NCBI RefSeq assembly: GCF_003018235.1
Contig: NZ_CP027437.1
From: Escherichia coli
GTDB lineage: Bacteria; Pseudomonadota; Gammaproteobacteria; Enterobacterales; Enterobacteriaceae
Reading direction: 5' to 3' (one strand)
DNA length: 64,000 nucleotides
In this document: piece after piece, positions 55,164-59,244 of the stretch
Layout: the number at the start of each line of letters is the position of its first letter
How positions within the stretch are numbered: position 1 is the stretch's first letter
Made by a program: the position numbers and the translations under genes
Notes under the pieces: generated by a model
Told to the model about the DNA's origin: nothing
What the model saw: only the letters and a program-made list of their open reading frames with translations
Database searches by the model: none

Positions 55164-56153
55164 CTATATGGACAGATTATGGACGCTTTCAGCCAGTGGA
55201 TTAAAGCTTATAGCATCCTGTAAAAAATCCGGTGCAAAATGCGCATATGTCATTGTTTGCTGGATAGTTGAATGTCCAAGAATCCGTTGAAGTGTTACTA
55301 TATTTCCTCCATTCATCATAAAGTGTGTTGCAAACGTATGCCGCATAACATGAGTTGCCTGTCCTTTGGGCAGATCTGGTTTTACTTCCTTTAGTGCTCG
55401 TCGAAAGTTTGTGTAATTAACATTAAACAATGCACCAGATTGTTTTATCTTGATGAGCTTTATAACTTCTTCGGATATAGGTATGGCGCGGGGTTTATTG
55501 GTTTTTGTCTGATTAAACATAACTCTGTTTCCCACAATATTTTCTCCCCGTAGTTTTGTTGCCTCTCCCCACCTTGCTCCTGTCGAAAGACACAGAATCG
55601 CTATTCGTTTGTTATCTCCAGTAAGATGATTGAGCAAGCGATCAATCTCTTCGTTTGATAAAAACGACATATCTGATGGTACAATCCTCAACTTCCTCAG
55701 ACCATGTAGCGGATTTGCATGGTGGAATTCTTCAGCATTAATCAGCACTGAAAACATGGCTGAAAGTACGCAGAGATCCCTGTTTACCGTGTTGGGTGTC
55801 AGTCCTGCACTGAGTTTGTTTGCACGATAACTCAGAAGGAACTTTCTGGTTACACCGTTGGCTCTGGGATCTCCCATTTCTCTGATCACTTTATTCAGCC
55901 TTTGCAGGTATGTCTCACCATAAGGCTGATTTTGCCCGTCGAGCATCCACCACATTTCGGCAAGTTCGGAAAGATGGCGTTTGTCTGCGGGTTTTTCCAG
56001 CCATGGTTTGTTATGCATGTTCTGAAGAACATATTTTTCATAATCCTGCGCTTTCGACTTCAGGGTGAAAATTTTTCGAATCCGCTTCCCTTCCGCACCC
56101 TGAGGTCTGACATCAACCTGATAACGTCCGTCTTTGAGCTGCTTAATCGACAT
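55164..56153 (-). CDS. int: Tyrosine recombinase, phage P2 Int family
   Basis: ORF 55164..56168; N-terminus MSIKQLKDGRYQVDVRP and C-terminal catalytic region ...HVMRHTFATHFMMNGGNIVTLQRILGHSTIQQTMTYAHF recognised as P2-like Int. Confidence 0.9.
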   Translation of the reverse strand: MSIKQLKDGRYQVDVRPQGAEGKRIRKIFTLKSKAQDYEKYVLQNMHNKPWLEKPADKRHLSELAEMWWMLDGQNQPYGETYLQRLNKVIREMGDPRANGVTRKFLLSYRANKLSAGLTPNTVNRDLCVLSAMFSVLINAEEFHHANPLHGLRKLRIVPSDMSFLSNEEIDRLLNHLTGDNKRIAILCLSTGARWGEATKLRGENIVGNRVMFNQTKTNKPRAIPISEEVIKLIKIKQSGALFNVNYTNFRRALKEVKPDLPKGQATHVMRHTFATHFMMNGGNIVTLQRILGHSTIQQTMTYAHFAPDFLQDAISFNPLAESVHNLSI

Positions 56154-56243
56154 GATTAGCACCTCCAACGGTATTTTGTTGCTTTAATACATTTCTGTAC
56201 CTTGTAATGTATTCAATATGCAGGCCAAACCAGCATCCTGGTG

Positions 56244-56567
56244 TTATTGGTGTGATTTTGAGTTTGTTGTAGTTGAATCCTGAGCGGCCTCCGATTCTCC
56301 AGAGCCATCAAGAGAGAGAGCCGGGGCGATCTGCCCGGCCTGAGGGAAGGTTTTGCCGTGCAGGAGCCACATTGTGTATTTTTCGAACAGTGAGCACTGT
56401 AATACACGGAGGGCGATATCTGCCCGGGCAGGTTGATGTCCTGTTTCATAACTCTTAACAGAACCAAGAGCTATACCTGTTATCTCGCTAAACTTTTGCT
56501 GGGTTATTTTTTCAGCACGTCTGATCGCTCGTAGTTTTTGAGCAAAATCCATTGACAAGGTATTCAT
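56244..56567 (-). CDS. Immunity repressor, P2 C-like (HTH)
   Basis: ORF 56244..56651 trimmed to MNTLSMDF with AAGGA RBS; C-terminal YTMWLLHGKTFPQAGQIAPAL resembles P2 C. Confidence 0.75.
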   Translation of the reverse strand: MNTLSMDFAQKLRAIRRAEKITQQKFSEITGIALGSVKSYETGHQPARADIALRVLQCSLFEKYTMWLLHGKTFPQAGQIAPALSLDGSGESEAAQDSTTTNSKSHQ

Positions 56568-56668
56568 ATAACGACTATCCTTCTTTTGGTTGTTGATTAA
56601 CGACGTTTGCAATAGCTGACTATAGTCGACAGTAGCCAGCAAACGCACCAACGATGGAGGATAACAAA

Positions 56669-57127
56669 ATGCAGGAAACTATTGCAGAGGGGGGGATATT
56701 CAACGCTGGTGGGGATGACACGCAGTTACAGGAAAAGGAAGTCAGAAATAAATTATCACTGAGACTTGATGGACCTGTAGCGGATTTAGTTTTTCTGGAT
56801 AAAGGAGCAGCATACGTTGGGCTGACCAGGAAAGCGCTTGCAACAGCTTTACGTAGAGGCGAAATGCCTGGACATAAGAAAAGAAAAAATCCTGAAGATG
56901 AAACATCGCGTGGAGTGTGGATTTTTAACGTCAAGGCATGGAATGAACTTGCTGATATTTTGCCTGAAATTGAGCCACCAGAATGGCATCACTGGAAAGA
57001 TTACTGGTTATACAACCGAAACACTCGGAAATTTCAAAAGATTGATAAACAAGATTGTACACAGATTAATGGTAAACGTGTTTACAGGCCGCGTCAGAGC
57101 AGACTGGAAAAAGCACGTCAGTCATGA
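56669..57127 (+). CDS. Cox-like excisionase/transcriptional regulator (divergent from repressor)
   Basis: ORF 56654..57127; internal ATG with GGAGGA RBS; HTH-like segment AYVGLTRKALATALRRGEMP; position equivalent to P2 cox. Confidence 0.55.
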   Translation: MQETIAEGGIFNAGGDDTQLQEKEVRNKLSLRLDGPVADLVFLDKGAAYVGLTRKALATALRRGEMPGHKKRKNPEDETSRGVWIFNVKAWNELADILPEIEPPEWHHWKDYWLYNRNTRKFQKIDKQDCTQINGKRVYRPRQSRLEKARQS

Positions 57128-57290
57128 AACGGTATTTATTAGTAAGCAACAAGAAAGTGAATTAAACTCATCGGCAATAACTCGTTATTAAATTGTCATA
57201 CTGTCTGAAACTATTTCCTTCTATTACTGATGTGTGAGGCACGGAAAGGGAATTCCGTTTTTTTAGTGGTGCGATGAGAAAATAACAGAG

Positions 57291-57485
57291 GTGTCAGAAA
57301 TGGAAAAAGAAAAACTGAGACATTTTCGTAAAGAATTAAAAGCTTCTCAGCGTGTAATGACTTTGGCTATTAAGCGATTAGAGGAAGGACGTTATAAGTC
57401 TGCAGTGGAACTCATGCGTGCAGAAGCAGCGGATATATTTAAACTGGCAGATGAATTAAGTGATGTAACAGAACAACAATCCTGA
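57291..57485 (+). CDS. Hypothetical small coiled-coil protein (64 aa)
   Basis: ORF with AGAGG RBS; charged helical composition. Confidence 0.45.
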   Translation: MSEMEKEKLRHFRKELKASQRVMTLAIKRLEEGRYKSAVELMRAEAADIFKLADELSDVTEQQS

Positions 57486-58281
57486 ACACAGGAAAGTTAT
57501 GGGCTTGTGTGATTCAGAAAGTGTGAGGTTACGTGCAAAATGGCCAGACATGTAAAAAAGAACTTGAATGCAGTGTCGGCATGGTGGTATTTTTCATCTG
57601 CTGCCACAGTGCTGGCAGTCGGGAATACCACCCCGTATGTGTCAACGGCGACATCAGACGCCGCAAGCGTCTTTTTTGTTGTCGTAACCTTATACGCCAT
57701 GAAGCTCCATTTTATGGTGCGGTGTTATCCATTAAGAGCCGTTGCAAGCGCCTCTACCGGAAGGGGCTGGATAACATCCACCACCATGTCAATGGTAGCT
57801 CAGGCGGGGCCGACTTCGGTCGGGCCGGTTTCCGTTGGCACCGGTAGTGGTATCCCCGTCTGGGCTATCGCCAGTGAGCATACCACCTCCTGCGATAGCA
57901 GTATGTTATGTCAACGGAGGCTGCCTGAATGGCTACAATCCCAACCCAAAAGCGCCCAAAATCCGCGCTCCCCCAGCTCAGCAGTGACTGTCGTCGCCGG
58001 ATACACCGTGTGCAGATGGTTACGCTCCATTATTACATTCAGTGTCTCGCTGATAATCCGTGTTCAGTTGATTTTTGTTTTCCGTACTTATTGTCTTACA
58101 TCCACGATGATATTAAGGCTATAGATAATGAGTTAATTTCTCTTGGCCTGTTTGAACAGGCGATGGGAAAGAAAAAACGACGATAGTTTTCATCGTTATT
58201 AATTAACGTTGTCAGGAAGTATTAAACACACCGCTCACGCGGCGGGAATCTTACATCTTAAATATCTGACGAGGTGGAAAC

Positions 58282-58437
58282 ATGAAGCTGTTTTCATTAC
58301 GTAAAAATAAAAAAACGGAAAAAAAGAAACGCACTTATCCGGCAAATAATAACGTCCGTCTGTTACGTTATTACCAGAAATTACAGGAATTAAGTTGTGA
58401 ACCGGATAAAAAGTTCAGCCTGGATGTGTGGATGTAA
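58282..58437 (+). CDS. Hypothetical Lys-rich small protein (51 aa), below ORF-track cutoff
   Basis: ATG preceded by GAGGTGG; stop immediately before exonuclease gene start. Confidence 0.4.
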   Translation: MKLFSLRKNKKTEKKKRTYPANNNVRLLRYYQKLQELSCEPDKKFSLDVWM

Positions 58438-58448
58438 TGGGGGAATAA

Positions 58449-59024
58449 ATGAACGATCTGATGATTGATACTGAAACAACAGGAACATCCCATCATTCAG
58501 GGATTATTTCCTTTGCCGCAGCATTTTTTAATCCAGATACCGGAGATAAAGGTGACCACATTTATCTTCGCCTGGACTGGGTGAGTGCGACACGTAATGG
58601 CGCAGTGATTGATCCGGAGACATTCTGTTTCTGGTTAGAGCAATCGACAGAAGTAAGAATGGAAGCCGTCAGGAAAGACGAAAGTATTTCTGAACGTGAC
58701 GCCACATATGCGCTGATTAATTTTATTGAGCAGCGTGCTGATATCAGACGGGTGCGTGTCTGGGCGAAGTCACCCACGTTTGACTGCTCACTTCTTCGTG
58801 ACATGTGTGATCGGAGTATTGGGTCAAATACCAGCGTAGAAATGTTGTGGCCGTTCTGGAATGAGAGAGATGTCAGGACTGTTGAAGGGCTTGCCGCGCA
58901 TCTTGGCATTCCGTTGCCTTACTCCAGAAAGGAAGTCACTCATCATGCTCTTAATGACGTTATGGGGCAGATAAAAAATGTGGCTACCGTATTTGCAGCA
59001 CTGCGTGGCGTGATGGAGGTGTGA
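58449..59024 (+). CDS. DEDDh-family 3'-5' exonuclease (DnaQ-like fold)
   Basis: Exo I motif IDTETTG, Exo II-like FDCSLL, Exo III HHALNDV in the 191-aa translation. Confidence 0.7.
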   Translation: MNDLMIDTETTGTSHHSGIISFAAAFFNPDTGDKGDHIYLRLDWVSATRNGAVIDPETFCFWLEQSTEVRMEAVRKDESISERDATYALINFIEQRADIRRVRVWAKSPTFDCSLLRDMCDRSIGSNTSVEMLWPFWNERDVRTVEGLAAHLGIPLPYSRKEVTHHALNDVMGQIKNVATVFAALRGVMEV

Positions 59025-59025
59025 T

Positions 59026-59244
59026 GTGAATAAAGCACAACGTAATGCTGCAGCGGCAGCGAATCGTCACAGGGTCTCGCCGGAACAGGTGCTCATCTGG
59101 TGTGAGCAACTGAAACGCATTGTGGACACAGCAAACCAGAATACGCGGCACAACGAAAAGAGCAGGGCGCTTGAGCCGATTATTGCGTGGATTGAGCAGC
59201 AGAAGAAACAGGCAATGGAAGAAATCAGAAAACGGGGTGAATGA
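59026..59244 (+). CDS. Hypothetical protein (72 aa), translationally coupled
   Basis: GTG start one nt after exonuclease stop; stop overlaps next start (ATGA). Confidence 0.45.
   Translation: MNKAQRNAAAAANRHRVSPEQVLIWCEQLKRIVDTANQNTRHNEKSRALEPIIAWIEQQKKQAMEEIRKRGE

Follow-up and report, generated by a model that had tools for sequence, protein, structure and literature searches.

The N-terminal two thirds of RecE (exodeoxyribonuclease VIII) have no known function yet improve linear-linear recombineering; a 2023 review describes the RecE N-terminal domain as being of unknown function but boosting linear-linear recombination (PMC11611040). In its treatment of Rec modules, a 2025 Genome Res survey of lambdoid phages reports both DnaQ-like 3'-5' nucleases in or near these modules and 'RecE-2' relatives of RecE that have no nuclease domain and whose role is unknown (PMC12315714). 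A plasmid-borne Escherichia coli homologue of the phage T4 exonuclease DexA, called EcD ('HREX'), protects against T4 (Kang et al., PMC12153337). The locus described here lies in E. coli contig NZ_CP027437.1 (assembly GCF_003018235.1), of which a window of 64,000 nucleotides (nt), the whole stretch of DNA analysed, was available. Positions 58282-59244 of the window hold exactly three tightly packed plus-strand open reading frames (ORFs), encoding a lysine-rich leader peptide of 51 amino acids (aa; orf51), a 191-aa DEDDh 3'-5' exonuclease and a 72-aa protein (orf72). The next gene encodes a 680-aa protein that is homologous to the N-terminal region of RecE (RecE-N) and lacks its nuclease. The exonuclease, orf72 and this nuclease-less protein, hereafter the scaffold, may be the split counterpart of a single-chain RecE-N::DEDDh protein that is widespread in E. 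coli.

The exonuclease, the RecE-type gene and the micro-ORFs

All three catalytic motifs of the exonuclease are intact, as the initial annotation of this DNA, made from the letters alone, had claimed. Exo I (DTETTG, residues 7-12, within MIDTETTG) supplies D7 and E9, Exo II (FDCSLL, residues 111-116) supplies D112, and Exo III (HHALNDV, residues 165-171) supplies H165 and D170 in the H-x4-D arrangement of the 'h' subtype; D7, D112, H165 and D170 show no variation among 44 relatives, at least 90% of which also keep E9. The Pfam profile check proposed at that time returns PF16473 (Rv2179c-like 3'-5' exoribonuclease domain) with an expectation value (E) of 1.3e-40 over residues 2-181, corresponding to model positions 1-176 of 177, and the PHROG collection returns phrog_255, 'exonuclease' (7e-42). 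The AlphaFold2 (AF2) model has a mean predicted local distance difference test score (pLDDT) of 92.9 and a predicted template-modelling score (pTM) of 0.89. Its best solved match in Foldseek is T4 DexA (8KEL/8KEN; TM score 0.79-0.81, E 1e-13), followed in rank by RNase T and the Orn/oligoribonucleases, and DexA is also the closest solved protein by sequence (phmmer, E 9e-8). Motifs, profile and fold agree, confirming that the 191-aa ORF encodes a DEDDh-superfamily exonuclease of the DexA/Rv2179c family. The ratio of nonsynonymous to synonymous substitution rates (dN/dS) is 0.11-0.14, calculated, as are all such ratios given below, across three prophages separated by synonymous divergences (dS) of 0.4-1.0. 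The DnaQ/epsilon-type profile PF00929 gives no significant match to the protein (E 0.65, 28 residues), and the suggested role in replication proofreading is not supported. A metagenomic relative of 56% identity (P0003, L011 1508-2083) has Lys in place of the catalytic Glu of Exo I (MIDIKT), which could point to an inactive protein or to a sequencing error.

The 680-aa gene had been described as an unknown, but its product is a RecE-family protein. It matches PF06630 (Pfam, 9e-35) and aligns to positions 4-422 of the 877-position NCBIfam RecE model PRK09709 with an E of 1.2e-161, at a score of 539.8 bits against a cut-off of 1269. The nuclease part is absent: Pfam finds no nuclease domain (PF12684) in the protein, local searches with RecE C-termini give no match in it (P0007), and its 135-aa tail gives no signal against the exonuclease hidden Markov model (HMM) even with filters off, for which reason a degenerate exonuclease domain in the tail was rejected. 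The AF2 model contains three confident ordered domains (about residues 9-110, 125-255 and 275-415), a mostly disordered, acidic stretch of ~215 residues (417-632) and a C-terminal helix (636-671) ending in HE; a zinc ribbon, CxxC-x9-CxxC, lies within the acidic linker at residues 516-530. A search for solved structures resembling the model found none. The gene is intact (677-704 aa) in the three prophages, with dN/dS of 0.22-0.26. PGAP, the NCBI Prokaryotic Genome Annotation Pipeline, labels it in RefSeq as a partial pseudogene, 'incomplete RecE family exodeoxyribonuclease', and does the same at L001 24415-25869 and L117 7237-7986. Because the gene is intact and under purifying selection this label is wrong, and the practical consequence is that a selected, complete 680-aa gene is presented as a broken recE.

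Other nuclease-less RecE-N proteins found in a P2-type prophage context have the same kind of C-terminal tail as the scaffold. As a separate observation, the window scaffold is 50-52% identical over its first ~545 residues to E. coli lambdoid RecE and fused types and only 31-38% identical to other split-type scaffolds (compared with P0012 and P0135). Judged by these identities, the combination of a lambdoid-like body with a P2-context tail suggests recombination within the gene.

The four ORFs are packed in a manner consistent with coupled translation, in agreement with the earlier description of an exonuclease flanked by coupled micro-ORFs. The stop codon of orf51 is separated from the exonuclease ATG by 11 nt that include a Shine-Dalgarno-like GGGGGA run, the GTG start of orf72 lies 1 nt past the exonuclease stop, and the orf72 stop overlaps the scaffold start as ATGA. 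Both micro-ORFs are intact in the three prophages and under purifying selection (dN/dS 0.08-0.17 for orf51 and 0.07-0.17 for orf72), indicating that they are genes and not chance ORFs; PGAP likewise annotates orf51, the exonuclease and orf72 in a prophage of strain CFIAFB20140388 that is nearly identical to the one in the window. Neither has a Pfam, NCBIfam or PHROG family, the sole match being a weak one to phrog_12885 (0.003). The relatives of orf72 nevertheless form one family (HMM E 1e-19 to 1e-9) with the conserved motifs (T/S)PEQ and N(T/S)RHN(E/Q)K. Conservation of orf51, characterised by the motif NNxVRxxRYYQKL, is confined to close relatives, beyond which a recognisable relative is found only in L121. 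The corresponding position in L015, L119 and L011 is occupied by an unrelated ORF of 42-53 aa, 'M.FRVNDFWV', so that orf51 is replaceable and is not a conserved partner.

Conservation of the gene order and the fused form

The order exonuclease, orf72, RecE-N is found in every exonuclease relative of at least 48% identity that lies on a long enough contig: L003-L008 (92%, cpxP site), ES5 (L117; 88%, pheL site), L012 (exonuclease 55%, orf72 46%, scaffold 31%), L015 (49%), L119 and L121 (48-49%), L125 and L128. In L011 (56%) the exonuclease and orf72 are visible before the contig ends. Relatives of the cassette thus occupy at least two integration sites, beside pheL and next to cpxP, and the co-occurrence with the 680-aa gene, which had been proposed as a check, holds down to 48-56% exonuclease identity. 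Three lineages, L120, L122 and L127, carry orf72 and RecE-N with no exonuclease, indicating that the invariant pair is orf72 and the scaffold and that the exonuclease is a frequent add-on; orf72 goes with the RecE-N gene, not with the exonuclease. The candidate partner set of the initial annotation, which joined the exonuclease to the 680-aa protein and the lysine-rich orf51, therefore survives in its first pairing and fails in its second, the conserved small partner being orf72.

The same two modules also occur in one chain. An 813-aa protein of phage vB_EcoS-640R1 (URC10031) is 49% identical to residues 9-543 of the scaffold, zinc ribbon included, and its C-terminal DEDDh domain, in which all catalytic residues are kept, shares 36% identity with the window exonuclease. 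The 823-aa protein of phage Tritos (TRITO_27) aligns to the scaffold mainly at the zinc-ribbon segment (63% over residues 424-543), and identity between its DEDDh domain and the window exonuclease is again 36%. Both proteins, which consist of the scaffold and a C-terminal DEDDh domain, are named 'exodeoxyribonuclease VIII', and PHROG families 2082 and 20376 each include both modules within a single profile. PF06630 proteins of E. coli are found with PF12684 (true RecE, 890 aa), with PF16473 (785-818 aa) or alone (677-704 aa); the RecE and DEDDh-type sequences are collinear through the zinc ribbon and the acidic linker, divergence being confined to the nuclease. In the window the modules are in separate ORFs and different frames with orf72 between them, and all relatives of the cassette likewise keep the two as intact, unfused genes. 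Of 5,426 complete E. coli genomes, at least 4,053 (about three quarters) contain DNA of the fused DEDDh region and six contain the split cassette.

RecE-N proteins are a small family, forming 158 clusters at 50% identity among 1.8 billion proteins. Classification of 60 long representatives by nuclease type gave PD-(D/E)XK in 28, DEDDh in 12 and none in 20. One lambdoid nuclease-less RecE-N gene adjoins those for Gam, RecT and a separate YqaJ exonuclease, which links the scaffold to recombination modules and to nucleases acting in trans. Some lambdoid nuclease-less proteins (P0090, P0132, P0161) have a different, hydrophobic conserved tail (…IAAxQGLCANP…IPGMAxMIAN…), and P0130 is an apparent fusion of RecE-N to a RecT-like C-terminus. 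In viral contigs L037 (3357-4322) and L038 (3947-4897) an ORF of ~320 aa directly follows a stand-alone exonuclease and shares with RecE-N only the zinc-ribbon segment (HMM E about 1e-9).

Prophage setting and expression

The prophage boundary lies directly past pheA/pheL, the insertion being immediately upstream of pheL; the site used by a sister prophage is next to cpxP. The plus-strand early operon begins after Cox and extends beyond the window end (Table 1). Strain CFIAFB20140388 contains a complete prophage 99.5% identical to that of the window, which combines P2-type parts (int/C/cox and a gpA-type replication endonuclease) with lambdoid parts (Q antiterminator, lysis genes, terminase, portal and a ClpP-capsid fusion). 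This hybrid make-up is seen in window 55164-64000 and in L001 (NZ_CP076709), with tRNAs among the lambdoid parts.

Table 1. Features of the prophage and its flank, in window coordinates.
Feature	Position	Strand
pheA and pheL leader of E. coli	53692-54999	
Tyrosine integrase	55164-56168	minus
C/cI-type repressor	56244-56651	minus
Cox-family protein	56654-57127	plus
Ash/Icd-like ORF, 194 aa (PF10554, E 4e-4)	57540-58124	plus
C4-type antisense RNA (Rfam RF01695, 74 bits, gathering score 45; P1 C4/P4 CI RNA type)	57788-57875	plus
P4-epsilon-like 'derepression' ORF, 85 aa	57929-58186	plus
Conserved non-coding block with hairpin ACACCGCTCACGCGGCGGG, just upstream of the leader ORF	58228-58263	plus
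orf51, 51-aa lysine-rich leader ORF	58282-58437	plus
191-aa DEDDh 3'-5' exonuclease, DexA/Rv2179c family (PF16473)	58449-59024	plus
orf72, 72 aa, GTG start	59026-59244	plus
680-aa nuclease-less RecE-family N-terminal scaffold (PF06630)	59241-61283	plus
73-aa winged-helix gene overlapping the scaffold stop, then 282-aa DUF1627 protein (PHROG 630)	61276-62284	plus

Plus-strand promoter-like sites were found only in the C/Cox switch region (56552-56626), and none belonging to the cassette itself was found. The C4 RNA is embedded in the Icd/Ash-like ORF, within an interval (57486-58282) for which PGAP gives no annotation in the near-identical prophage. One to three C4 copies, often accompanied by IsrK and c4-a1b1 elements, lie upstream of the RecE-N gene or exonuclease cassette in six of seven related loci scanned, L121 having none. 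The C4 RNA probably gates early transcription into the cassette, a connection that we infer, and to judge from the early-operon position, the promoter-like sites and the C4 RNA the cassette would be expressed only during lytic development. The Ash/Icd-like and epsilon-like ORFs overlap in different frames; some relatives have this long form, and in others the two genes do not overlap.

The hairpin upstream of orf51 is conserved at 18 of 19 bases in seven loci, the single change being a loop C-to-A in L117, and the coding flanks of these loci are only ~50% identical. A terminator scan flagged it only as weakly terminator-like on the minus strand, and the block may serve to regulate the cassette. 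The DUF1627 gene is also found downstream of RecE-N in L119, L120 and L004-L008 and may be a member of the same module.

Proposed mechanism, alternatives and comparison with known systems

The observed motifs, fold, domain architectures, fusions, synteny and purifying selection are consistent with a split RecE-N/DEDDh enzyme in which the exonuclease acts in trans with the scaffold and orf72 and trims 3' ends during lytic growth, a reading whose chances are judged to be about even. It predicts the enzymatic activity, the DNA substrate, the physical association, the timing of expression and the biological role. The 191-aa protein would be an active Mg2+-dependent 3'-5' exonuclease and the trans-acting nuclease partner of the adjacent non-catalytic scaffold, with the 72-aa protein as the scaffold's constant companion, and the trio would represent a split version of the single-chain protein, which appears to occupy the usual recET or exo-bet place in most E. 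coli lambdoid prophages. The four ORFs, with their coupled-translation layout, would be transcribed from the early lytic promoter, downstream of the C4-RNA/Icd/antirepressor module, and the complex would accordingly act during lytic growth. Its likely task would be 3'-end trimming of linear DNA, which could be host DNA or intermediates of phage replication or recombination.

Several findings weigh against such a split enzyme. A 3'-5' polarity is the opposite of that needed in annealing-based recombination. Moreover, there is no single-strand annealing protein in the visible part of the prophage or in its near-identical counterpart: annealing-protein families gave no match among the nine cassette and downstream ORFs up to 63400, and no RecT is annotated in the complete prophage of CFIAFB20140388. 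The three lineages having orf72 and RecE-N without the exonuclease indicate that the scaffold does not need it, and conservation of the scaffold's C-terminal tail does not depend on the presence of an exonuclease, so that the tail is not a dedicated docking site. Exonuclease relatives (~190 aa) are stand-alone, with no RecE-N nearby, in 76 of the 80 best viral-contig matches and in all 22 species-representative genome loci; the scan of those genomes yielded relatives at 25-36% identity only, and neither RecE-N nor orf72 accompanied any of them. In addition, Rv2179c, the founding member of PF16473, is described in the Pfam family description as an exoribonuclease, so that the substrate could be RNA.

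The stand-alone relatives are what would be expected if the protein were an autonomous accessory exonuclease, brought beside RecE-N by modular phage mosaicism, with orf72 and RecE-N functioning separately. It would then function on its own, like T4 DexA and its many stand-alone lambdoid early-left relatives, with nucleotide scavenging from host DNA or general 3'-end trimming as possible tasks. The location of the phage PhiR47_1 gene amid Ea22/EaE-type accessory genes, the lineages from which the exonuclease is missing and the ability of DexA to function without any such scaffold (PMC12153337) all fit this explanation. It is nevertheless considered somewhat unlikely, because the same domains are fused in the 12 DEDDh clusters and in the many E. 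coli genomes enumerated above, and because the clade of at least 48% identity keeps the order and tight spacing over two integration sites and a large divergence. Both the family name of PF16473 and the structural matches ranking after DexA, namely RNase T and the oligoribonucleases, point instead to an RNA- or nucleotide-directed enzyme of the Rv2179c, RNase T or Orn-like kind, which might process RNAs such as C4 precursors, given the C4/IsrK-type RNAs (one to three) upstream in the window and in six of seven related loci, or might degrade nucleotide immune signals as an anti-defence function. However, the closest solved relative is a DNA exonuclease, the domain is fused to a DNA-recombination exonuclease scaffold on which it interchanges with PD-(D/E)XK DNA nucleases, and a C4 RNA is also upstream in L120, a locus without the exonuclease; an RNA-directed function is accordingly held to be very unlikely.

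The homology to DexA in both sequence and fold, together with the protection against T4 conferred by EcD on its plasmid and the presence of the exclusion genes tin and old in P2-group prophages, raises the alternative of an HREX-type nuclease for superinfection exclusion or defence, which would degrade incoming 5-hydroxymethylcytosine (5hmC) T-even DNA and protect the lysogen. The gene, however, lies inside a repressed early lytic operon, behind the C4-RNA gate and with no promoter-like site of its own, among neighbours that are DNA-transaction and regulatory genes and not defence genes. The window residues S81 and D84 coincide with the DexA tetramer positions S87 and D90, the latter being Ala in EcD, a comparison based on the phmmer alignment only (PMC12153337). 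PADLOC reports no defence system, giving only a match to its generic Cas-associated DEDDh model (4e-7), for which reason membership in a defence system was rejected. The defence role raised in the initial annotation is without support, and an exclusion nuclease is regarded as highly improbable.

A broader extension of the split-enzyme reading is that the RecE N-terminal region serves as a general nuclease-docking or DNA-end scaffold for nucleases of unrelated folds and opposite polarities, fused or in trans, with the 72-aa protein as an obligate adaptor in this lineage and the whole forming a three-subunit 3'-5' end-processing machine. This extension is speculative and is considered unlikely as it stands. 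If it were true, the role of the machine would differ from that of classical RecET and might be, for example, removal of 3' tails to block host RecA/RecBCD on rolling-circle phage DNA. Independently of this, the fused RecE-N::DEDDh gene is uncharacterised despite its frequency in E. coli, and a natural split version with a small conserved partner offers separable components for testing scaffold binding and nuclease recruitment. Such work would also bear on the reasons for which phages exchange a 5'-3' nuclease for a 3'-5' one on a common scaffold.

The components of this locus are already known and named in databases; a description of their split and reordered arrangement, with the 72-aa partner and in a P2-type context, was not found. 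The 2025 survey, in its account of Rec modules, treats both components separately and in lambdoid phages, and no mention of their pairing, of orf72 or of a P2-type setting was seen there (PMC12315714). The initial annotation had allowed that the gene might be the standard orf81/orf82-type gene of ordinary P2-like early operons, which is not the case. In the P2 early operon (orf78-83) no gene encodes an exonuclease. The phage 186 orf82-type protein (NP_052286, 'DNA polymerase exonuclease subunit', 194 aa) resembles the window protein in being a DEDDh enzyme of ~190 aa encoded by a non-essential early-operon gene between the Cox/Apl gene and replication gene A, but it belongs to another DEDDh family and has no RecE-N neighbour. 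BLASTP between the two gives an E of 0.033 with only Exo I aligned, and the PADLOC DEDDh model scores 5.8e-29 for the 186 exonuclease as opposed to 4e-7 for the window protein. Identity with the P2/186 orf81/82 genes was rejected on these grounds.

T4 DexA shares with the window exonuclease the DEDDh catalytic set and is likewise a phage-encoded 3'-5' exonuclease, but identity is only ~24-27%, and DexA is a 227-aa protein with extra loops and helices that stands alone in a virulent phage. Rac RecE shares with the 680-aa protein its N-terminal region of ~420 residues, the zinc-ribbon segment and the acidic linker. The 680-aa protein, by contrast, lacks the C-terminal PD-(D/E)XK 5'-3' nuclease (PF12684), is not accompanied by recT, and is adjacent to a nuclease of the opposite polarity (3'-5'). 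The fused RecE-N::DEDDh proteins of E. coli lambdoid prophages (785-823 aa, annotated 'exonuclease' or '3'-5' exoribonuclease domain-containing protein') likewise combine a homologous scaffold with a DEDDh domain in an early lytic operon that has no adjacent annealing protein. They differ in that the window has two genes in the reverse order, exonuclease first, separated by the 72-aa gene, in that the window scaffold ends in a different 135-aa tail, and in that the early region of the window prophage is P2-type rather than lambdoid.

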